Below, piece by piece: positions 8,853 to 61,068 of a stretch of 64,000 bases of DNA. The stretch spans positions 3,467 through 67,466 of the forward strand of contig CAYRGW010000009.1 in NCBI GenBank assembly GCA_964423815.1, in the 5' to 3' direction. Each line of letters opens with the position of its first letter. Within the stretch, counting starts at the first letter, position 1. Below the pieces are notes generated by a model, which worked only from the letters and a program-made list of their open reading frames with translations, made no database searches and had not been told where the DNA came from. The DNA is from an uncultured Solibacteraceae bacterium. Lineage in GTDB: Bacteria; Acidobacteriota; Vicinamibacteria; Vicinamibacterales; SCN-69-37. The position numbers were made by a program, and so were the translations under genes.

Positions 8853-8890
8853 GAAGTCCCGGGGTCCCGAAGTCCCGAAGTCCCGAAGTC
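8853..8890. repeat. GAAGTCCC/GGGGTCCC octamer tandem
   Basis: About 5 units directly after the rhomboid stop; same family at 23223 and 25889. Confidence 0.85.
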
Positions 8891-8894
8891 AGGA

Positions 8895-8930
8895 TTTCAA
8901 CATGGGGGGCCATGGGGATCCATGTTGAAA
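8895..8930. repeat. Short TTTCAACATG..CATGTTGAAA inverted-repeat element
   Basis: 10-bp perfect IR between convergent genes; same termini at 38965/39216 and 61034. Confidence 0.85.
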
Positions 8931-9281: not shown

Positions 9282-11402
9282 GTGATGAAGACCGCCACCT
9301 CGCCCGCAGCCGCCACCTACGAGGGACTCACCCGCGAAGACCTCCTGCAGGTCTACCGCACGATGTTGACGTCGAGGCGGATCGACGACAAGGAAATCCA
9401 GCTCAAGAACCAGAGCCTGATTTTTTTCCAGATCAGCGGCGCCGGCCACGAGGCCATCCTGACCGCCACCGGCATGCAGATGAAGGCCGGCCACGACTGG
9501 TTTTTCCCGTATTACCGCGACCGGGCGTTGTGCCTGGCCATCGGCATGACCCCGCTGGAGATGTTCCTGAGCGGCGTGGGCGCCGAGGCGGACCCGAACA
9601 GCGGCGGACGCCAGATGCCCTCCCACTGGGGCCACAAGGCGCTCAACCTGGTCTCGCAGGCCAGCCCGACAGGCACGCAGTGCCTCCAGGCCGTCGGCTG
9701 CGCGGAAGCGGGCCGGCTGTACGAACAGCTCACCGACATCCCCGAGCGCGACGGCAAGTTCGAGAAGGACGAGGTCGTGTACGTCTCGCTCGGTGACGGC
9801 ACCGTGAGCGAGGGCGAGTTCTGGGAATCACTCAACGCCGCCTGCGTCGGCAAACTGCCGGTGCTCTTCATGATTGAAGACAACGGCTACGCGATCTCCG
9901 TGCCCGTCGAAGTCCAGACGCCCGGCGGCGACATGTCGAAGCTGGTCGAAGGATTCCCCGGCCTCGAGGTCCTGCGCTGCGACGGCACCGACTTCCTCGA
10001 TAGTTACCGCACGGCCGCCAAGGCGCTCGACTACTGCCGCTCGCGCAAGGGCCCCGCGCTGATCCACGCCAAGGTCGTCCGCCCGTACTCCCACTCCTTG
10101 TCTGACGATGAGAAGTTGTACAAGACACCGTCGGAACGTGCGGAAGAAGCGACGCGTGATCCGATCACGAAGTTTGTGGCGTGGCTGAAGGCCGAAGGGC
10201 TCGCGACCGAGACCGACATTGCCACGATCGCCAAGGAAGTGGACGTTGCGGTCAACACGGCGGCCGACACCGCGGTGAAGGCGGCCAAACCCGCGAGGGA
10301 AACGGCCGGCTGGTACGTGTACTCGCCGGACGTGGATCCGACGAGCGCCGACTTCGACAGCCCGGCGGTGCCCGAGGGCAAACCCGACACGATGGTCTCC
10401 GCGATCAATCGCACCATGAAGGACGAAATGGCGCGCAACCCGCGCATCGTCATGTTTGGTGAGGATGTGGCGGACGCGACGCACGAAGAAAAGCTGAGCG
10501 AAGTGCAGGGCAAGGGTGGCGTCTTCAAGGTGACGCATGGCCTGCAGAAGGCGTTTGGCGGCACACGTGTGTTCAACGCGCCGCTGGCCGAGGCCAACAT
10601 CATCGGACGCGCGGTCGGCATGGCGGTCCGCGGCATCAAACCCGTCGTCGAGATCCAGTTCTTCGACTACATCTGGCCGGCGATGATGCAGCTGCGCGAC
10701 GAGATGTCGATGATGCGGTATCGGTCGAGCAACAATTTTTCGTGCCCGATGGTCGTCCGCACGGCCATCGGCGGGTACCTGCGTGGCGGCGCGCCGTACC
10801 ACAGCCAGTCGGGCGAGAGCATCTTCGCGCATTGCCCCGGCATCCGGATTGCCTACCCGTCGAACGCGCAGGACGCGGCCGGACTGTTGCGCACGTCGAT
10901 TCGGTGTGACGACCCGGTGTTGTTCCTCGAACACAAACACCTGTATCGCCAGACCTACAACAAGGGTGAATACACGGGTCCGAACTACATGATCCCGTTC
11001 GGCAAGGCCGCCGTGAAACGTGAAGGCACGGACGTCACCGTCGTGACGTGGGGCGCGCTCGTACAGCGCACGTTGCTCGCGGCGCAGCAGGCCGAAAAAG
11101 AGGGCATCAGCGTGAAGGTGCTCGACCTGCGCACGATCATGCCGTACGACTTTGACGCGATTGCGGACTCGGTCAAGGCGACCAACCGGCTGATCATCGC
11201 GCACGAAGATCAGCTCACGTGTGGGTTCGGCGCCGAACTGGCCGCGCGCACCGCGAGCGACCTGTTTGAATATCTCGACGCGCCGGTCAAACGTGTGGCC
11301 GCGATGGACTGCCCCGTCGCCTACTGCCCCGATCTGGAAGAAGTGATTCTCCCGGGGTCGGCCGACGTGCTCGCCGCCATCCTGGAAACCGCGCGGTACT
11401 GA
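9282..11402 (+). CDS. Fused 2-oxoacid (branched-chain-type) dehydrogenase E1 alpha/beta
   Basis: SGAGHEA, YYRD, GDG..DNGYAIS TPP motif, HSLSDD; beta part [21 protein letters not shown]. Start is GTG 9282 or ATG 9285. Confidence 0.92.
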
Positions 11403-12458
11403 ATGCGCCGCACCTGGGGCCTCGTGGTTCTCCAGGTGCTGGCGCTCGCCGCCACGGTCGCCGCCCTGCGCGGCTCCACTCAGGCACCCATCGAAATCCT
11501 GCGGCCCGTGGGCGGGCTCTCCGCGCGTGTCTGTGACTCGTTGCATGAACCCATCGCGTTTGTGCAGGCGAGCGACGGCCGCTACTTCCTGCTCGACCGC
11601 CGGGCGCACACCATCTACAGCGTCGATCGCACGGGCACCCGCCTCACCAAGGTCATGGAAGCCGGCATGCAAAAGGGCGAAGTCCTGCAGCCGGCCGTCC
11701 TGAGCATGGCGGGAGACGATGCGTATGCGGTGACGGATGCGCCGTTTGGCCAGGAGCGGATTCAGGTCTACAACAAGAACGGATCGCAGGTCCGCGCGTT
11801 TCTCCGGCCGGGGCTGGCCAGTCCGCGCCTCACCATGGGGCCGGTGATTCTCAATGGCGTCGGATCGTTGCAGTTCACCGGGGATCGGTTCTTCATCAAT
11901 GCGCCGGAGACAGGGGCGTTGATCTCGGAGCTGAATCTCGACGGTGATCCTGTGCGGCAGGTCGGCCTGTTGCGGCCGACAGGGCATGAGGCGGATCGGA
12001 ACGTACACCTCGCGCTCAACATCGGCCTGGCGCTTCCGGACGCCAAGGGCGGCGTCACGTTTGTGTTCCAGACCGGCGTGCCGAAGTTCCGCAAGTACGA
12101 CGCGACCGGCCAACTGGTATTCGAGCGCCACATCGAGGGGCCGCACGTTGATCCGTACCTGCAGAGTCTGCCGACGACGTGGCCGACACGTAAGGCGGGT
12201 GACGGCACCTATCCCATCGTGCCGCCGATGGTGCGGACTGCGGCGCTTGATCCCGCCGGCAACCTCTGGGTCAGCCTCGCTGCACCGTACACGTATGTCT
12301 ACGACGCCTATGGCGACAAACGCCGCACCGTGCAGTTTGACGGCACGAGCGGCAGCGCGCCGGTGAGCCTGTCGTTCAGCCGCGCCTCAGGCTCGCTGCG
12401 TGCGCTCGTGCTGCCCGGGTGTTACGAATACGACGCGACCTTCACCATGAAGCCGTGA
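11403..12458 (+). CDS. Secreted hypothetical protein, probable beta-propeller
   Basis: N-terminal signal peptide; NHL-like strand repeats (RIQVYNKNGS, KYDATGQLV, LDPAGNLWV, VYDAYGD). Confidence 0.65.
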   Translation: MRRTWGLVVLQVLALAATVAALRGSTQAPIEILRPVGGLSARVCDSLHEPIAFVQASDGRYFLLDRRAHTIYSVDRTGTRLTKVMEAGMQKGEVLQPAVLSMAGDDAYAVTDAPFGQERIQVYNKNGSQVRAFLRPGLASPRLTMGPVILNGVGSLQFTGDRFFINAPETGALISELNLDGDPVRQVGLLRPTGHEADRNVHLALNIGLALPDAKGGVTFVFQTGVPKFRKYDATGQLVFERHIEGPHVDPYLQSLPTTWPTRKAGDGTYPIVPPMVRTAALDPAGNLWVSLAAPYTYVYDAYGDKRRTVQFDGTSGSAPVSLSFSRASGSLRALVLPGCYEYDATFTMKP

Positions 12459-12655
12459 AGACATGAAGGACGAGCGAGGTTGGACGGCCCGGCTCCGCCG
12501 GGTCGTCATGATCGAAGAGAGCCGACGACTGAATGCCCCACATGAATGGAGATGGGGTATTCAGTCGCCGGCTCTCTTCGATCATGACAGCCGCCAAAGG
12601 CGGCTGTCCAACCCCTCACCCTATATGCCTACATGTCTCCTGTGAAAAGCTCTTT
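12441..12655 (+). repeat. Four-way-junction structured element, copy A
   Basis: Closing stem GGTTGGAC/GTCCAACC, hairpin CCCGGC-TCC-GCCGGG, 36-bp hairpin 12505-12588, hairpin AGCCGCC-AAA-GGCGGCT. Confidence 0.8.
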
Positions 12656-12658
12656 TGA

Positions 12659-14998
12659 CTACCGCGCACGGAGCGTCAGCGTGTGCGCGCGTTCTTTTTC
12701 GACACGCGCGCGTGAGTACACGAGCGGGAAGAACTCGTCGTTCGCCCACAACGTGTGCAGGTTGCTGAAGAACGGGCTCTCGGGCTGGGCGGACTGGCCG
12801 GTGGCGTTGGTCACGAGTGATCGATCCCAGTCCGCTACATCGAGAATTTCGCGATAACTCGCGCCGTCGGCGGCGAGGGTGCCGGTGCCGCCGGGACGTT
12901 CGACGGTCGCCAGGCTGTACGCGGGCACCAACGGGAACGGGAACGACCGCGTGTGCACACGGCCCCATCGCCACTGCGACCAGTCGGCGCCCAGCGAGGT
13001 CGTCATCTGAGCGATCGCCTTCGCCAGCGTGGCTTCGTGTTCAGCCTTGCGTGCGTCGGCCGGCCGTGACGCGTCGCGCTCTGTGACGCTCGACATGCCG
13101 CGCCACACGTCGTGGATGGCGGCGGCGGCACTGCCTTTGGCGAGGGTGCCGTCCCAGGACGCGATCAACTGACGCGCGCGTTCCACCTCGGCGGTCGTGG
13201 AGGTCCAGCCACGAAACAGGGCCGTCTCACTTTCCGCGCGCAGGTGTTTGGCGTCGAGTTGCATGCGACGGTGATCGTCGAGCGTGAACGGTTTCGGCGA
13301 ATCAAACAACTGCATCAACCGGGTGATGCGGTCGTACGGCAGATTCGCCGACGACTTGAACATGAGCGGCGGTGTGTAGTCCTTCGGCTGGACGTTGTTG
13401 TTCGCAGTCGCGATGAAACCACGCTCGGGATTCAGCTCACGCGGCAGATCCCGTCGGAAACCGTTCCACTCATACGCGCCCGTGCCGGGCACCGGCAGCC
13501 GGCCGACCCAGGACCGGCCCTCGGGACCCGCAGCGCGGCGGTCGGGCGTGAGTGCCGAGGCCTGCCACGAGATGTTGCCGTCCACGTCGCCGCAGATCAG
13601 ATTTTCGCTCGGCGCCTTCCAGTACATCGCGTCGTTGAGGAACGTCTTGCAGTCGGGCGATTGCGCGAGGCGAAGACTGCCCAGGTACGGCGCGGTCCCC
13701 GGCTCCAGCATTGCGGACCGAAGGACATACAACTTGTGGCGCGCGTGGTCCTCGTGAAACACCGGGCCATGGCGCGTGAACTTCAGCTCGACCGTTTCCA
13801 CGGCGCCGCCTTTGACGCGCACCTCTTCACGCACCACACGCACGGGCTCCCACCGGCCACGGAATCGGACTTCGCCCGGATTGGCAGGGTTGACGTCCTC
13901 GACGTAGACGTCCTCCATGTCGGTGCCGACAATGGTCAGTCCCCATCCGAGGCGTTCGTTGTGACCGATGGCCGCGCCGACAAACGGCACCTCGCCTGAT
14001 CCAATGACGTTCCACCCCGGCGCGTGCAGGTGCACGATGTACCGCAGTGACGGATGTGTCACCGCACGATGGGGATCGTTGACGACCACTGGTTTGCCCG
14101 TCGCGGAGAGCCGGCCGCTCACGACCCAATTGTTGGATCCGGGAGGATCGGGTGGGGAGGACGGTCCCGGTATCTGCGGCTCCAGGCCCCCGCGGCCACG
14201 ACCGGAGACCACCGCCCGGTACTGCTCAAGAATTTCAGGTGTGTTGCCGCCACGGCCGCCTCCGCCCGCGCGCCCGCCGGTCGTGGTCACCGTCTCATCG
14301 ATGATCGCGAGATCAAGTCCTTCGGGCAACGCCAGGTCGTCCCACGGATCGGGATTACGCTGCCGATTGGCGGCCTCGCGACCCAGCCGCACCACCGCAC
14401 GCGCCAGATTCAGTTCCGTGTTGGCATCCCCAAACGTCGCGGTGCGCAGCACAACCGTCTCGGCCGTCCACGGGTCCGGCGTGATGCCCGTCACCGTGAA
14501 CTCAAGCGGCAGCGTGTTTTTGTGCGTGGTGATAAACGCGTTCACGCCGGCGGCATACGCATCGAAGATCCGTTTACCTTCCGGGTGATAACTCGTCCAT
14601 TCGCGATCGTCCATGGGACCGCGATACCGCAGCAGGCGCGCCTGCCGATCCCGCGCCACCGCCTGCGGCCCGAGAATCTCGGCCATGCGGCCCTCTTTGT
14701 CGCGCCGCCACATCTCCATCTGCCACAGCCGGTCCTGCGCCATGACATACCCCTGCGCAAAAAAGAGGTCGTCGGTGTTCTGCGCGTAGATGTGCGGAAT
14801 GCCCCACAGGTCACGAATCACCTCGACCGATTCCCGCAGCCCAGGCAATCGTTGTTCACCATCCAGTGGCGTCAGCGCCGCACGCGCCAACGCGCGCAGC
14901 CGTTCGTTGGGAGGCGCCGCCTGCCGCGCGGGCAGCACAACGATGGTGACGAGAAGCAGTGCGAGAAGTCCGCCGAAAAACAGTCTCGGTCGTGCCAT
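12659..14998 (-). CDS. Penicillin acylase family (peptidase S45) Ntn-hydrolase
   Basis: RDLWGIPHIYA, AQGYVMAQDRLWQM, G|SNNW catalytic Ser, NDPH, TANN; signal peptide. Confidence 0.93.
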   Translation of the reverse strand: MARPRLFFGGLLALLLVTIVVLPARQAAPPNERLRALARAALTPLDGEQRLPGLRESVEVIRDLWGIPHIYAQNTDDLFFAQGYVMAQDRLWQMEMWRRDKEGRMAEILGPQAVARDRQARLLRYRGPMDDREWTSYHPEGKRIFDAYAAGVNAFITTHKNTLPLEFTVTGITPDPWTAETVVLRTATFGDANTELNLARAVVRLGREAANRQRNPDPWDDLALPEGLDLAIIDETVTTTGGRAGGGGRGGNTPEILEQYRAVVSGRGRGGLEPQIPGPSSPPDPPGSNNWVVSGRLSATGKPVVVNDPHRAVTHPSLRYIVHLHAPGWNVIGSGEVPFVGAAIGHNERLGWGLTIVGTDMEDVYVEDVNPANPGEVRFRGRWEPVRVVREEVRVKGGAVETVELKFTRHGPVFHEDHARHKLYVLRSAMLEPGTAPYLGSLRLAQSPDCKTFLNDAMYWKAPSENLICGDVDGNISWQASALTPDRRAAGPEGRSWVGRLPVPGTGAYEWNGFRRDLPRELNPERGFIATANNNVQPKDYTPPLMFKSSANLPYDRITRLMQLFDSPKPFTLDDHRRMQLDAKHLRAESETALFRGWTSTTAEVERARQLIASWDGTLAKGSAAAAIHDVWRGMSSVTERDASRPADARKAEHEATLAKAIAQMTTSLGADWSQWRWGRVHTRSFPFPLVPAYSLATVERPGGTGTLAADGASYREILDVADWDRSLVTNATGQSAQPESPFFSNLHTLWANDEFFPLVYSRARVEKERAHTLTLRAR

Positions 14999-23638: not shown

Positions 23639-23651
23639 ACTACCGCGTGAA

Positions 23652-23715
23652 AAGACGTCGGGTGTCTTTTTTGGATCTAAGCGATAGCAAAAAAAGACAC
23701 CCGACGTCTTAGACT
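23652..23715. repeat. Long palindrome family P, copy 1
   Basis: GACGTCGGGTGTCTTTTTT-loop(CTAAGCGAT)-AAAAAAGACACCCGACGTC-TTAGAC. Confidence 0.9.
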
Positions 23716-38404: not shown

Positions 38405-38415
38405 GCCCTGCATGA

Positions 38416-38478
38416 TAGGACGTCGGGTGTCTTTTTCCGCACTAAGCGATGCAGAAAAAGACACCCGACGTCTTAGAC
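38416..38478. repeat. Long palindrome family P, copy 3
   Basis: GACGTCGGGTGTCTTTTT-CCGCACTAAGCGATGCAG-AAAAAGACACCCGACGTC-TTAGAC. Confidence 0.9.
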
Positions 38479-38487
38479 ACAGAGGAA

Positions 38488-38895
38488 CTACTCGACCCGT
38501 CCAGCGCGCACGAGGTGCAGCAGATCGACAAGCCCCGCGGACACGAGGCGACCAGGCGCGAGCGCCACCAGGAAAAACGCCTGCATCCGATTGATGTTGT
38601 CCGTGAAACGCAGCGGATGATTGATCGGCGTGCCCCAGAGGCCGATGTTGGACATATCCGGCCGGGGCGCTGCCGCGTACGCGAGCGCCAGGTAGAGCAC
38701 GGTGAACACGCCGGCCGTCAGTCGATCATCGGTGTTCGGCCAGCCACTCGCCACGTACCAGATCCACGCCGCGAGCAGAACGAGCGCCAGCAGTCCCCGA
38801 TACAGCCCGGCATGTCCAGTCCAACGCTCCGGCGGTCCATCCACACGACCCACCGGACCGGGATTGCGGCGTTCGAAAAGCCACTCAAACAGCAT
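38488..38895 (-). CDS. Hypothetical membrane protein
   Basis: Three hydrophobic segments; only plausible ORF in the gap. Confidence 0.6.
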   Translation of the reverse strand: MLFEWLFERRNPGPVGRVDGPPERWTGHAGLYRGLLALVLLAAWIWYVASGWPNTDDRLTAGVFTVLYLALAYAAAPRPDMSNIGLWGTPINHPLRFTDNINRMQAFFLVALAPGRLVSAGLVDLLHLVRAGRVE

Positions 38896-38949: not shown

Positions 38950-39218
38950 AAGAGCTGTGAGAATTTTCAACATGTAGGGCCATGGAGTTCCATGAAGGGT
39001 GAGGGCTGGGTGCCGCCTTCGGCGGCATGGGTGATCGGAGGGAAACCGTAGACGAGAATCCCTTGGCGAAAATCGAGAGGGACTCTCGTCTGCGGTTTCC
39101 CTCCGATCACCCTGGCCCGGCGGAACGCCGGGCTCCCAGCCCTGCGTCTCCGTGTCTCCGTGACTCCCTGTGAATCTGTTCTTCCCCCATGGAACCCTAT
39201 GGTCCCCATGTTGAAAAA
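38950..39218 (-). repeat. Four-way-junction structured element, copy B, with TTTCAACATG termini (MITE/REPIN-like)
   Basis: Closing stem AGGGCTGGG/CCCAGCCCT, hairpins TGCCGCC-TTC-GGCGGCA and GCCCGGCG-GAA-CGCCGGGC, 35-bp hairpin 39029-39112; terminal IR at 38965/39216. Confidence 0.82.
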
Positions 39219-39235: not shown

Positions 39236-41089
39236 TCAGCGTGCCTTGACGGCCCGCGCGATCGCCGCGGCTGAGATGCCGTAACGCTCGAGCAGTTCGT
39301 CGGGTTCGCCGCTGCGCGGAATCTCGCGCACGGCGAGGCGCTGGACGGTGAAACCCTGATCCCAGACCGCTTCCGAGACGGCGTCACCGAGACCACCCTG
39401 CGCGTAGTGATCCTCGACGGTGAGAATCCGTCCGCCGCTCGCCTTGCCGGCCGCAATCAGGCCCGCGCGATCGATCGGCTGGATGCAGTACGCATCCACC
39501 ACACGAATCGCGATGCCGTCCTTCGCGAGCAGTTCGTGCGCCTTGAGCGCTTCAAACAACGTCACACCGGCGGCCACGATCGTCGCGACGTCCTTGTCGC
39601 TCTGCCGCACCACCTTGGAGCCGCCCACGGGGAACTTCTCGTCGGTCGAATAGATGACCGGTGTCTTCGGACGTGAGCTGCGAATGTAGACCGGGCCCGG
39701 CGTCGCCGCGGCGACGGCCACGAGACGTTCCGCGCACACGGCGTCCGACGGGTAGAGCACGGTGCAGTTGGGCACCGCGCGCGCCATCGCCAGATCTTCC
39801 AGCGCCATCTGCGACGGGCCGTCTTCACCGATGGACACACCGGCGTGTGATCCACACAACTTGATGTTGAGCATCGAGATGCCCGACATCCGGATGAAGT
39901 CCGCGCCACGCTCAAGGAAACACGCAAAGCTGGACGGATACGCAATGGCCCCGCGGCTGGCGAGCCCCATCGCGGCACCGATCATCGCCTGCTCGGCGAT
40001 AAACGTCTGGTAGAACCGCTCCGGATGCAACTTCTCGAACCGATCACTGAACGTCGAATTTTTCACGTCGGCGTCCAGCGCCACGATCCGCTTGTCCACA
40101 CCACCAAGCGCGGCGAGTGCCGTGCCGTACGCTTCGCGCGTCGCGACCAGGTCACCCATCTTGTACGCCGGGGCGGGCATGGCCGCCACAAAGTCCGGCA
40201 GGGCCCCTTCCGAGCGACGGGTCGCGGGCTTCGGAATCACGGGCGCGGGATCGGATGTCGGAATAATCGCGGCCTCAAGTTCGGCGATCGCCGCATCGGC
40301 TTCCGCCCCCTTCTTGAGGGGTTTGCCGTGCCAGTTGTCCTTGTCCTCAAAAATCGAGCAGCCCTTGCCCTTGAGGGTCTTCGCGACAATCATCGTGGGC
40401 CGGCCGCTCATACCGCGCGCTTCCGCCAACGCGGCGCGCAGTTCCGAAATGTCGTGACCGTCGACCACGATGGCGTGCCAGCCGAAGGCACGGTACCGCG
40501 TCGCAAACGCGTCCACGTCGTGCGCGAACTGCGTCGCGCGGCTCTGGCCAAACGCGTTGACGTCGGTGATCGCGCAGAGGTTGTCGAGGTTGTGATTGGC
40601 GGCGACCTGCGCGGCCTCCCACACGGACCCTTCCGCACTTTCGCCGTCACCCAACAACACGTAGGTCCGGTAGTCCGACCCGATGCGGCGCGCGTTGAGC
40701 GCAATGCCGACACCGGCGGCCAATCCCTGGCCCAGCGACCCGGTCGCCACGTCCACAAACGGGAGGCGCGGCGTCGGATGCCCCTCCAGGTCGGACGTAA
40801 TCTTGCGGAGGTTCATCACGTCCTCGCGCGGAAACGCGCCGGCCGCGGCCCAGGCCGCATACAGAATCGGGGCCGCGTGGCCCTTCGACAACACGAAGCG
40901 GTCGGCCTCGGGGTGCTGCGGATCCTTTGGATCAAACCGCAATTCGTCGAAAAACAGGACCGCAAGGATGTCGGCCGCCGACAGGCAGGTCGTCGGATGC
41001 CCCGACCCGGCTTCGGTCGTGGAACGCACCGAATCGATGCGGAGTTGAGTAGCGAGGTTGTGGAGGACGTTATTGGATGGTGGAGTCAT
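39236..41089 (-). CDS. tkt: Transketolase
   Basis: GSGHP, DRFVLSKGH, EGHP, TGSLGQG, GDGE..EG, IAEQ, GEDGPSQ. Confidence 0.95.
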   Translation of the reverse strand: MTPPSNNVLHNLATQLRIDSVRSTTEAGSGHPTTCLSAADILAVLFFDELRFDPKDPQHPEADRFVLSKGHAAPILYAAWAAAGAFPREDVMNLRKITSDLEGHPTPRLPFVDVATGSLGQGLAAGVGIALNARRIGSDYRTYVLLGDGESAEGSVWEAAQVAANHNLDNLCAITDVNAFGQSRATQFAHDVDAFATRYRAFGWHAIVVDGHDISELRAALAEARGMSGRPTMIVAKTLKGKGCSIFEDKDNWHGKPLKKGAEADAAIAELEAAIIPTSDPAPVIPKPATRRSEGALPDFVAAMPAPAYKMGDLVATREAYGTALAALGGVDKRIVALDADVKNSTFSDRFEKLHPERFYQTFIAEQAMIGAAMGLASRGAIAYPSSFACFLERGADFIRMSGISMLNIKLCGSHAGVSIGEDGPSQMALEDLAMARAVPNCTVLYPSDAVCAERLVAVAAATPGPVYIRSSRPKTPVIYSTDEKFPVGGSKVVRQSDKDVATIVAAGVTLFEALKAHELLAKDGIAIRVVDAYCIQPIDRAGLIAAGKASGGRILTVEDHYAQGGLGDAVSEAVWDQGFTVQRLAVREIPRSGEPDELLERYGISAAAIARAVKAR

Positions 41090-61033: not shown

Positions 61034-61068
61034 TTTCAACATGGAGGGCCATGGTCCCCATGTTGAAA
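61034..61068. repeat. Short TTTCAACATG..CATGTTGAAA element
   Basis: Matches the left and right ends of the 38965-39216 element joined together; lies between convergent genes. Confidence 0.85.

Follow-up and report, generated by a model that had tools for sequence, protein, structure and literature searches.

Several bacterial MITEs fold as a single hairpin, among them Correia/NEMIS in Neisseria, ERIC in enterobacteria and RUP/BOX in pneumococci, and REP and ERIC-type repeats have both been described as 3'-end barriers. The BIMEs of E. coli are defined by the proteins bound to them, IHF and gyrase. Further afield, the terminal hairpins of parvoviruses and the attC sites of integrons are multi-arm foldback DNAs in which shape and conserved mismatches or bulges count for more than sequence. 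Of the palindromic repeats of uncultivated Acidobacteriota, we know of almost no description.

A second comparison system is provided by REP, REPIN and BIME elements together with the RAYT transposases (PMC3733652, PMC2817692). We use the definition of a REP found in the passages of PMC3733652 on these repeats, an imperfect palindrome of 20-40 nt with a GTAG or CGTC tag at one end. The same passages describe that the E. coli RAYT no longer cleaves REP DNA once the mismatched residues at the loop edge are made to pair, and that other Acidobacteria have RAYT-like genes whose accompanying inverted repeats are long and in part 'double palindromic' (PMC3733652). The third comparison is with quasipalindrome template-switch mutagenesis (PMC8604942, PMC7202029, 10.1101/2021.04.15.439925); in inverted repeats, template switching between the arms is reported to homogenise them and to invert the spacer (PMC8604942), and compensated stem changes are reported to arise in one event (10.1101/2021.04.15.439925).

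Here we analyse two elements, copies A and B, in a 64-kb stretch of DNA from the genome of an uncultured acidobacterium (the window). Our verdict is that they represent a new MITE/BIME-like family of palindromic repeats constrained at the DNA level. The family resembles the MITEs named above in being non-coding, intergenic, 100-300 nt long and present as dozens of dispersed copies, and also in its terminal inverted repeats, insertion polymorphism, modular sub-types and a neighbouring coding region that runs into the element. It differs from them in its interior, a four-way junction with three local palindromes enclosed in one or two shells, in a long arm whose sequence is free provided that it stays paired, and in the lack of an autonomous partner or clear target duplication in our searches of draft assemblies.

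Structure of copies A and B

The sequence-only reading held that A and B share their order of parts and their fold, and every motif it named could be located in both sequences. In each, a closing stem bounds two small GC hairpins (h1 and h3) and one hairpin of ~35 bp. The minimum free energy of copy A was -131.4 kcal/mol against -67.1 +/- 4.8 in shuffles, and that of copy B -169.4 kcal/mol against -94.4 +/- 5.5, with 0 of 200 shuffles as stable in either case. Hairpin h3 reads GCCGCC-AAA/GAA-GGCGGC and is followed by CCCTCACCCT and CTACATGT. Positions below are those of the window.

12441-12654, plus strand: copy A, whole element (fold z = -13.4)
12441..12477, plus strand: copy A left shell (module L1-left), TTCACC followed by short repeats of CATGAAG type
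12478..12613, plus strand: copy A four-way core, from the fold, a covariance-model score of 125.3 bits at 12474-12619 and pair counts
12478-12485 / 12606-12613, plus strand: copy A closing stem, GGTTGGAC/GTCCAACC
12488-12502, plus strand: copy A hairpin h1, CCCGGC-TCC-GCCGGG
12506-12587, plus strand: copy A long hairpin, with A.C at 12525/12568 and G.T at 12535/12558
12590-12604, plus strand: copy A hairpin h3
12614..12654, plus strand: copy A right shell, CCTCACCC followed by L1-right ..CTACATGTCTCCTGTGAA, outer end AAGCTCTT
39215-38966, minus strand: copy B, whole element (fold z = -13.8)
39146..39215, minus strand: copy B left shells, L2-left at 39215-39181 (TTCAACATGGGG..) and L1-left at 39174-39146 (TTCACAGGGAGTCACGGAGACACGGAGAC)
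39003..39142, minus strand: copy B four-way core, from the fold and a covariance-model score of 139.8 bits at 38998-39145
39142-39135 / 39010-39003, minus strand: copy B closing stem, GGGCTGGG/CCCAGCCC
39132-39116, minus strand: copy B hairpin h1, CCCGGCG-TTC-CGCCGGG
39112-39029, minus strand: copy B long hairpin
39026-39012, minus strand: copy B hairpin h3
38966..39002, minus strand: copy B right shell, TCACCC followed by L2-right ..CCATGGCCCTACATGTTGAA
8896..8936, unstranded: shell-only mini hairpin, coreless, TTCAACATGGGGGGCCATGGGGATCCATGTTGAA + AGCTCTT (terminus at C9:12362)
61035..61067, unstranded: second shell-only mini hairpin, TTCAACATGGAGGGCCATGGTCCCCATGTTGAA (matches at C9:64517-64536)

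The four-way core stands as first drawn, and the unit is larger than the core, as inverted-repeat shells belong to it; copy A has TTCACC...TGTGAA(AAGCTCTT) and copy B has TTCAACATGG...CCATGTTGAA. The right shell of copy B may extend to 38931 through a degenerate L1-right (..CACTGTGAA), and the end of the right shell of copy A is also present at the matching junction in genome G006. The left shell of copy A takes in the final 7 codons and the stop of an ORF at 11403-12458, the C-terminus of which is ..YEYDVK* in relatives and ..YEYDATFTMKP* in the window.

Across the family the unit is built from one or two inverted-repeat shells, with termini TTCA(A/C)CA.., around the core, the shells themselves being composed of short repeats of CATGG/GGAGAC type and their terminal inverted repeats being TTCACA../..TGTGAA and TTCAACATGG../..CCATGTTGAA. 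Arrangements found were L1-core-L1, L2-core-L2, L1-core-L2-L1, L2-L1-core-L2-L1, L1-L2-core-L2-L1 and shell-only; cores thus carry differing shell combinations, and the shell-only units are hairpins of 52-75 nt without a core. L1 termini numbered about 100, the regex matching 150 times in the genome and 51 times in a reversed-genome control; L2 termini numbered 37 (control 0). In genome G011 the element ends reach AGAGC/GCTCT, and the outer ends are fuzzy, extending perhaps to CAGTAGAGC. The mosaic goes further in some copies: in L002, L019, L043, L061 and a copy at the beginning of contig C68, the long hairpin harbours a repeat of a second family in its apex, and in others the long arm is deleted or truncated. 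Differing palindromic units in variable order at intergenic sites is a trait shared with BIMEs.

Family size and distribution

A and B were taken at first as two copies, and proved to be two of 37 loci found by nhmmer in this 4.66-Mb genome, each 67-275 nt long and occurring singly, spread over 30 contigs. The search with a covariance model that the sequence-only reading proposed returned 29 loci at E <= 0.01, 24 of them with a full core. Core identity within the genome is 88% for the closest pair and 69% at the median, and these sequence identities give no indication of recent bursts. The copies are single over 30 contigs beside housekeeping neighbours, with no tandem array, and integron attC sites, which are imperfect hairpins arrayed in tandem next to an integrase with one hairpin for each cassette, were rejected as an identity for them.

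Matches to the family came from 13 of the 19 other genomes examined in the genus, from 6 of 17 other genera of the same family-rank taxon and from none of 24 genomes drawn from the order's other families. Presence is patchy even within the genus, where loci per genome range from none found to at least 26; no match was obtained in G009 and G010 (100% complete) or in G013 (97%). In a pattern scan of public contigs, the genomes with many matches, among those listed, were labelled Vicinamibacterales or Acidobacteriota. Single matches in Actinomycetes and other groups, again among those listed, would be expected by chance for a GC-rich pattern. A metagenome scan with the left-flank coding pattern of copy A gave 0 matches. 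The host group is soil and groundwater Acidobacteriota of one lineage.

The idea that the element might be undescribed has held up so far as Rfam is concerned, with 0 matches at the gathering threshold across the 64-kb window. Sub-threshold models obtained for copies A and B in E-value mode were generic long hairpins, for instance miRNA precursors, which scored 44-48 bits where the thresholds are 74-100, and were rejected as chance. A literature search found no description of the family; the lists of Acidobacteria tyrosine transposases and inverted repeats belonging to PMC3733652 might describe related repeats.

Pairing, covariation and the conserved mismatch

Compensatory change, predicted from two copies, is present in the further ones. 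Among 21 copies both-sided changes occurred at 46 of 57 pairs, against 28.3 +/- 2.5 in shuffles and 17-24 with the partner slid; 93.2% of cells were paired (74.0% in shuffles, 38-45% slid), and cells with both-sided change numbered 224 versus 62 in shuffles. The long hairpin contributed, in sum, 169 both-sided, 10 wobble-only and 40 unpaired cells, and the small number of G.U intermediates is, going by the aligned copies, a DNA-like pattern. Its arm sequence varies freely as long as pairing holds, and across several genera it has been replaced while the architecture was retained (e.g., L049 and L050).

The long arms of A and B had been said to carry two mismatches, A.C in mid-stem and G.T near the tip, in the same orientation in both. 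This is correct for the G.T (5' G, 3' T) and incorrect for the mid-stem mismatch, which is 5'A.3'C in copy A and 5'C.3'A in copy B. Only the tip-proximal position is conserved in the family, being non-Watson-Crick in 23 of 32 anchored elements where any other stem position reaches at most 5; the mid-stem mismatch recurs loosely (8 non-Watson-Crick cells over three adjacent positions). The conserved site is G.T in 13 elements, A.C in 9 and C.C in 1, and since A.C is the reverse complement of G.T, the tip of the long hairpin occurs flipped. In L015 and L016, on one contig with cores 88% identical, the tip of one element is the reverse complement of the tip of the other. A methylation or deamination hot spot was considered as the cause of the G.T and A.C forms and rejected: the double mutant A-T is absent (anchored-arm tally G/A 13, A/G 9, G/G about 9, A/A 0), and the bases adjoining the site differ between sub-families.

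Arm-to-arm copying of a DNA palindrome is a rival to the idea of selection on a folded single strand. As portrayed in the template-switch papers, this process predicts both joint change of the arms and a reverse-complemented loop plus inner stem in related copies, as seen here. It is, however, a mutation process and not an element, and pure arm homogenisation would erase the mismatch; as this is kept in 23 of 32 elements, some selection must act. By analogy, the two mutually reverse-complementary forms recall parvovirus flip/flop hairpins and attC sites, although the former form the ends of genomes and the latter lie in arrays next to an integrase, whereas the elements here are single, internal and chromosomal.

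Gain and loss between genes

Comparison with empty sites, suggested by the sequence-only reading, found the copy A junction without the element in five relatives, where 223 nt are replaced by 16 (G009), 34 (G012), 91 (G015), 109 (G013) and 68 nt (G010). The intergenic space holding copy B is ~815-915 nt, against 70-170 nt in G018, G009, G015, G016 and G008, and a copy at C34:18870 has an empty site in G018. Units are gained and lost between genes. A strain ~4.5% diverged, from another sample, keeps copy A, with 91 letters inside the left shell in place of 27 in the window; among contigs aligned to 10500-14500, none joins across copy A.

At C1:79412 the genome G006 has unrelated repeats. At C34:26300 it has a related copy with rearranged flanks, making orthology uncertain; the two copies differ by a mirrored 1-nt insertion and substitution in both arms, mismatches being commoner in G006, and these mirrored changes may be read as a hint only.

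Because the genomes with empty sites are only 72-87% identical, junctions cannot be placed to the base. By eye, no target-site duplication was evident in 18 copies of G011 and none was consistent in this genome, where among 27 copies there were only two suggestive 5-nt direct repeats, TCTTA (C135:8978) and AATAT (C27:19433). The search for an autonomous element with the same ends looked in this genome for termini paired at a spacing of 400-3000 nt and found none; termini were also listed in G011, G016 and G008 without yielding a partner, those of G011 being paired by eye at ~150-300 nt and none at kilobases, in draft assemblies. Draft assemblies often lose insertion sequences.

Gene context and readings as RNA

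Elements lie mostly at gene 3' ends and have no preferred orientation, the fold being roughly equal on either strand. Flanking ORFs, mostly 0-120 nt away, allowed 31 of the 37 loci to be classified as convergent, tandem or divergent in numbers of 11/17/3, against 531/2089/536 genome-wide; for 38 classifiable elements from several genomes the numbers were 14/20/4. Neighbouring genes are housekeeping, e.g., penicillin amidase, transketolase and gamma-glutamyltranspeptidase. Strand counts relative to neighbouring genes were 8:9 in this genome; with versus against tandem genes the core was counted 11:9 and the G.T-bearing strand 3:6. Reverse strands score ~95 bits with the covariance model and forward strands ~130.

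That both strands fit the model, together with the 11:9 and 3:6 counts, speaks against the structured ncRNA gene that had been put forward. A multi-copy family of trans-acting ncRNA genes with a cloverleaf-like four-way junction would account for the strong consensus fold, the abundant covariation and the architecture retained in several genera despite replacement of the long-arm sequence. We find it scarcely credible all the same: besides the unbiased orientation, genomes of one genus differ in copy number, with no locus found at the low end and at least 26 at the high end, deletion or truncation of the long arm and repeats nested in its apex are tolerated, copy A has no promoter or terminator signature, and the coding region of its neighbour enters the element.

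An RNA role symmetric between strands deserves more weight. The fold may have been exapted by the host as a 3'-end barrier, either an mRNA stabiliser or a U-tract-independent terminator, acting for whichever neighbouring gene transcribes it, a reading compatible with a selfish origin. Elements 0-30 nt past stop codons, enrichment in convergent spacers (11/31 versus 17% genome-wide; 14/38), depletion from divergent, promoter-bearing spacers (3/31 and 4/38), near-equivalent folds on both strands and extreme folding energies all agree with it, and the convergent-end enrichment fits such a host-useful structure equally well as a selfish repeat. Still, we hold this to be unlikely. No T-tract follows the structure in copy A, and a terminator scan of 12300-12800 gave one site, at 12678-12693, outside the element and none within it; six genomes of the genus have no match, so the element is dispensable. 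On a given strand, moreover, A.C is as frequent as G.U and unrelated to the direction of transcription (3:6), and wobble intermediates are rare (10 versus 169 double changes), unlike typical RNA helices.

Relation to Y1 transposases and REP repeats

The hairpins might alternatively be single-stranded DNA substrates of an HUH Y1 transposase of RAYT or TIRYT type that mobilises the elements in trans, recognising the fold and the conserved mismatch. Structure kept rather than sequence, a single conserved mismatch near the loop, repeated GTAG in some shell variants (e.g., TTCACAGTAGACATGTAGAC) and the two Y1 genes of this genome are what this would lead one to expect, and precedents are found in the mismatch dependence of the E. 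coli RAYT and in the RAYT-like genes with long inverted repeats of other Acidobacteria, as reported in PMC3733652. Linkage to HUH/RAYT genes, raised by the sequence-only reading, is nevertheless absent from the stretches searched: with the element model, in 17 stretches from this genome, G011, G016 and ten other genomes, the element lay beside 0 of 18 Y1 genes. Both Y1 genes of this genome are flanked by other repeats: the gene at C52:18878-19222 has a 53-nt palindrome belonging to the GTCGGGAGGC-T5 family, and the gene at C15:129-647 has GTAG REPs. Co-occurrence was no more helpful; all 20 of the 20 genomes in the genus have PF01797, also the 6 in which the element was not found, and hence its co-occurrence with the element carries no signal. 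We consider direct mobilisation by such an enzyme decidedly improbable. The single weak match near a Y1 gene (31 bits, G016) was another REP cluster and not the four-way element.

The family is like REP/REPIN/BIME elements (PMC3733652, PMC2817692) in its small GC-rich stem-loops (h1 and h3 being REP-like), its mosaic units, its position at gene 3' ends, the conserved mismatch near the loop and the apparent recognition of structure over sequence. It is unlike them in flanking no RAYT gene among the 18, in a unit 5-10 times the length of a REP, in numbering a few dozen copies rather than hundreds, and in having the GTAG tag in no more than part of its shell variants. The hairpins h1 and h3 are GC hairpins of 15-17 nt lacking the tag. 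True REP families with RAYT genes are also present in this genome.

Proposed mechanism and significance

The earlier suggestion of selection on a folded ssDNA or RNA survives in part, a folded single strand being viable and a strand-specific RNA gene unsupported. The A/B family behaves like selfish palindromic DNA and not like an RNA gene. We infer, as the probable reading, that A and B are small, lineage-restricted, non-coding, nested-palindromic interspersed repeats of Vicinamibacterales (Acidobacteriota), MITE/BIME-like in character and maintained as follows. The constraint would be foldback of the DNA itself, as a single-stranded intermediate or a cruciform, and not of a strand-specific RNA. 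Near-perfect pairing of divergent arms would be kept partly by arm-to-arm copying through replication template switching, which would also invert the hairpin tip and so give the G.T and A.C 'flip and flop' forms, and partly because selection on the element favours a hairpin that can fold and that carries one conserved wobble-type mismatch. This mismatch is probably a feature recognised by a protein.

A bolder proposal, to which we give very little probability, is that a structure-specific, sequence-independent mechanism acting on the folded single strand moves or copies the family, resolving the long hairpin in flip and flop as in hairpin transfer at parvovirus ends. The G.T/A.C wobble, 5-6 bp below the loop, would then be a recognition or resolution mark, and each round would regenerate a perfectly paired arm. 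If true, the family would represent a novel type of mobile DNA in bacteria, one whose terminal requirement is shape alone.

Bacterial genomes are shaped by small palindromic repeats, which fragment assemblies, shift the ends of genes, act as seeds of rearrangement and can also modulate mRNA. With dozens of copies per genome in several genera, the A/B family is a natural data set that can separate selection for a fold from one-step template-switch copying as the source of 'compensatory' stem changes, a question that bears on the use of covariation as evidence for functional RNA. It also carries a warning, in that DNA palindromes alone can yield strong covariation statistics. The single conserved wobble site, occurring in both polarities, offers a handle for finding a protein that reads the hairpin.

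A nested and dispersed repeat family

Folded as single strands, copies A and B share an architecture in which a closing stem surrounds a small triloop GC hairpin (h1), a hairpin of ~35 bp and another small GC hairpin (h3).

Window 12441-12654, + strand: copy A
Window 39215-38966, - strand: copy B

The motifs listed for them in the sequence-only reading are all present at the positions assigned there. Copy A folds at -131.4 kcal/mol, whereas 200 dinucleotide shuffles give -67.1 ± 4.8 (z = -13.4); for copy B the values are -169.4 and -94.4 ± 5.5 kcal/mol (z = -13.8), and in either case 0/200 shuffles were as good. The two copies had also been said to carry their mismatches in the same orientation, which is correct for the tip-proximal G.T, of equal polarity in both, but not for the mid-stem mismatch, which in copy A reads 5'A.3'C and in copy B 5'C.3'A.

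What had been described as a pair of copies is a dispersed family. Using A and B as queries, nhmmer located 37 loci on 30 contigs of the source genome (4.66 Mb, 189 contigs, 64% G+C), five of them no more than a few hundred bases from where a contig ends, in an assembly that is a draft broken by repeats. In that assembly the window is C9:3467-67466. Of the 23 located full cores, 21 were aligned with MAFFT to build a covariance model, L002 and L019 being omitted for another repeat within the long hairpin, and the model's search of the same genome, as the earlier reading had proposed, returned 29 loci at E <= 0.01, 24 of them full length. The family folds on either strand: the opposite strand of every locus also matches the model, at ~95 bits versus ~130. 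Core identity within the genome is 88% for the closest pair, with a median of 69%.

The family is modular and non-coding, and its real unit is larger than the four-way core first proposed, since one or two inverted-repeat shells enclose each core. Shell L1 reads TTCACA, followed by two or three octamers of GGAGAC/GTAGAC/GAAGAC type, and has the mirror end ..TGTGAA; shell L2 reads TTCAACATGGGG-CCATGGGG.. with the mirror end ..CCATGTTGAA. Regex matches to the termini numbered 150 for L1 and 37 for L2, against 51 and 0 in a reversed-genome control. Copy A is of the type L1-core-L1 and copy B of the type L2-L1-core-L2-(L1); L1-core-L2-L1, L2-core-L2 and L1-L2-core-L2-L1 are further arrangements. 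In the related genome G011 the termini are TTCACCATGGAG.., like copy A, with a further inverted pair AGAGC/GCTCT outside them and, in some cases, CAGTAGAGC/GCTCTACTG. The long hairpin is wholly or partly missing in copies at C122, C54:19776, C84 and C17:5501, and in L002, L019, L043, L061 and the copy at the C68 contig start the long-hairpin apex is the exact site of another kind of small palindromic repeat. Core-free shells also exist as hairpins of 52-75 nt, as do L2-only units of 33-34 nt.

Window 8896-8929: L2-only unit
Window 61035-61067: L2-only unit

The octamer GAAGTCCC, in about four tandem units (window 8862-8892), immediately precedes the first of these.

Pairing, covariation and the conserved odd pair

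The long arm is free in sequence and constrained in pairing. Compensatory change, suspected from A and B, recurs in the further copies: RNAalifold on the alignment of 21 copies found both-sided changes in 46 of 57 pairs. Relatedness of the copies overstates the significance of the shuffle control in the table below; the slid control and the number of pair types are independent of it.

Pairing in the alignment of 21 copies: observed; 500 shuffles; partner slid 1-3 columns
Cells paired: 93.2%; 74.0 ± 0.8% (0/500 reach the observed value); 37.8-44.6%
Cells with both-sided change: 224; 62.4 ± 6.8; 33-41
Covariation score: 0.520; 0.169; 0.073-0.109

In the long hairpin, both-sided change affects 31/33 pairs and 94.2% of cells are paired; summed from the helix table, 169 cells carry both-sided change, 10 are wobble-only and 40 unpaired. 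In the h3 stem, 6/7 pairs are invariant.

We compared 32 long hairpins from several genomes, with the conserved ..GA.. in the 5' arm as anchor; the other 12 of 44 elements were unusable, seven without the anchor and five with a longest uninterrupted helix below 30 pairs. One site, 5-6 bp away from the loop down the stem, departs from Watson-Crick pairing in 23/32 (G.T 13, A.C 9, C.C 1), whereas each of the remaining stem positions does so in 0-5/32. Because 5'G.3'T reads 5'A.3'C once reverse-complemented, the G.T and A.C classes are one tip that faces either way with respect to h1 and h3. L015 and L016, on one contig with identical h1 and h3 and cores 88% identical, have tips and loops that are mutually reverse-complementary, and the L023 tip is reverse-complementary to the L012 and L001 tips. 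Read towards the loop, the arms of the anchored elements are G/A in 13, A/G in 9, G/G in ~9 and A/A in none (our own tally); arm asymmetry is retained more often than independent arms predict, kinship being ignored in both statements. The tip is not the only level of the nest that has inverted: the h3 loop, AAA, GAA or GGA in most copies, is TTT in 4/21 (L007, L008 and L024 in the source genome, L037 in G011), and in the C16 copy the entire core is inverted relative to its own shells.

Gain and loss at orthologous sites

The family is insertion-polymorphic, and the empty-site comparison suggested earlier found empty or shorter sites for copy A, the copy B region and the copy at C34:18870. The neighbours of copy A are two convergent ORFs, 11403-12458, which has no Pfam family, and the penicillin amidase ORF 12659-14998; their orthologues, without the element, are 16, 34, 91, 109 and 68 nt apart in the relatives G009, G012, G015, G013 and G010. 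The L1 shell of copy A supplies the last seven codons and stop of the upstream ORF (window 12438-12458); in relatives without copy A this C-terminus is different and shorter, ..YEYDVK*. In G006, the closest relative at 85-87% identity, the site shows an L1-right end, and a strain from another groundwater sample, which has diverged by ~4.5% across 751 nt, retains copy A with 91 letters in place of the window's 27 in the left shell (12442-12468). Copy B follows a transketolase-family gene (39236-41089), 17 nt past its stop, and a spacer of ~815-915 nt separates this gene from the next conserved one, against 70, 120, 132, 119 and 170 nt in G018, G009, G015, G016 and G008; the extra DNA contains copy B, a 135-aa ORF (38488-38895, -, no Pfam family) and a hairpin of a second family (38410-38485). 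The C34:18870 copy has an empty site in G018. No consistent target duplication was seen in copies inspected by eye, with two suggestive 5-nt cases, junctions not being base-resolved at such divergence.

The 135-aa ORF, within the ~850-nt stretch missing from most relatives and there situated between copy B and the second-family hairpin, is gene-like in composition (GC3 0.76); it may be spurious, or may have come in along with the repeats. At C34:18870-26536, a 7.2-kb block lies between two closely related four-way copies that point the same way; its outer flanking genes are 125-400 nt apart in G011, G015 and G016, with block genes elsewhere in G011 and G016, which suggests that the block moved or recombined through the repeats.

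Distribution among genomes and position relative to genes

The family is restricted to one lineage. The model matched 13/19 other genomes of the genus, 6/17 of other genera in the family and 0/24 from other families of the order; element numbers in G011 and G016 are at least those counted, up to 52 candidates being scored per genome. Within the genus, G009 and G010 (both 100% complete) and G013 (97% complete) gave no match. In other genera (L049, L050, L051) the architecture is kept with a wholly different long-arm sequence. In a pattern scan of species-representative genomes, the many-match genomes among the matches listed are labelled Vicinamibacterales or Acidobacteriota, so the earlier guess of Acidobacteriota was right; lone matches in Actinomycetes and other groups, also among those listed, are at the level expected by chance for a GC-rich pattern.

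Copies favour gene 3' ends and shun promoter spacers, with random strand. By our own crude GC3-based ORF caller (3345 ORFs, 83% of the genome covered), the 31 classifiable loci of 37 comprise 11 convergent, 17 tandem and 3 divergent contexts against 531, 2089 and 536 spacers genome-wide; across several genomes, 38 classifiable elements of 44 comprise 14, 20 and 4. In tandem contexts the element runs with and against the genes in 8:9 cases (source-genome loci) and 11:9 (several genomes), and the G.T-bearing strand is the coding strand in 3 and its opposite in 6.

The 3'-end location would fit a strand-symmetric RNA structure used by the host at gene ends, a reading that we consider unlikely: a terminator scan at copy A found no T-tract following the structure, the element is dispensable, being unmatched in six genomes of the genus, and the A.C forms do not fit. 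The structured ncRNA first proposed, as a trans-acting gene family, is very improbable, contradicted by random orientation, variable copy number and tolerance of deletions and nested insertions.

Y1 genes and other repeats

The suggestion that the hairpins are substrates of a Y1 (HUH/RAYT-type) transposase draws on a real analogy with RAYT-REP recognition, as set out in PMC3733652. It nevertheless seems quite unlikely, since the four-way element lies near 0/18 Y1 genes examined, all 20 genomes of the genus carry Y1 genes, with or without the element, and both Y1 genes of the source genome sit in their own repeat cassettes, with a 53-nt perfect palindrome on each side at C52 and GTAG-tagged REPs at C15.

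A second palindromic family, A(4-6)-GACGTCGGGTGTC-T5..A5-GACACCCGACGTC, gave 79 regex matches on both strands against 0 in a control.

Window 23650-23709: second-family copy
Window 38410-38485: second-family copy
C52:18547-18599: second-family copy
C52:19289-19341: second-family copy

Its two sub-types, GTCGGGTGTC and GTCGGGAGGC, covary; that of the GGAGGC type stands on both sides of a 266-aa Y1 (RAYT-like) gene in a REPtron-like layout, and copies of the family occupy the long-hairpin apex in several four-way elements. Its A-run/stem/T-run layout looks like a putative bidirectional terminator. Around the second Y1 gene (172 aa, C15:129-647, within C15:1-752) stand at least six REPs with the GTAG tag (GTAGGGCGTGGGCTTCAGCCCCGCC), their orientation alternating, and a REP of this kind also adjoins the four-way copy at C48:29054. 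In G016, at C22:599600-600520, a Y1 gene is flanked by clusters of another REP type (GCCGGGTCTGAAGACCCGGCCTCCGAAGA), so the genus carries several distinct REP-RAYT pairs.

Proposed mechanism

In its way of working the family resembles long-hairpin MITEs and REP/BIME mosaics. It differs from RAYT-linked REPs and, for a MITE, lacks a demonstrated partner element and target duplication; it matched no Rfam family. The literature covered, with few subscription journals in it, gave no description of the family and nothing on Vicinamibacterales repeats, which is weak evidence of novelty. Special to the family are the four-way core, the nesting, the hypervariable yet paired 35-bp arm and the wobble site conserved in both polarities.

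On balance we favour a constraint on DNA foldback, rather than on an oriented RNA, combining template switching between the arms of the long hairpin with selection on the mismatch. PMC8604942, PMC7202029 and 10.1101/2021.04.15.439925 describe template switching between quasipalindrome arms as homogenising the arms, inverting spacers and producing compensated stem changes in one step. Such switching would explain the scarce wobble intermediates, the flipped tips and the mirrored indel plus substitution in the arms of related source-genome and G006 copies, whose orthology is uncertain. Because homogenisation would remove the single mismatch, some selection preserving it would have to exist, and its simplest agent would be a protein reading the shape of the hairpin.
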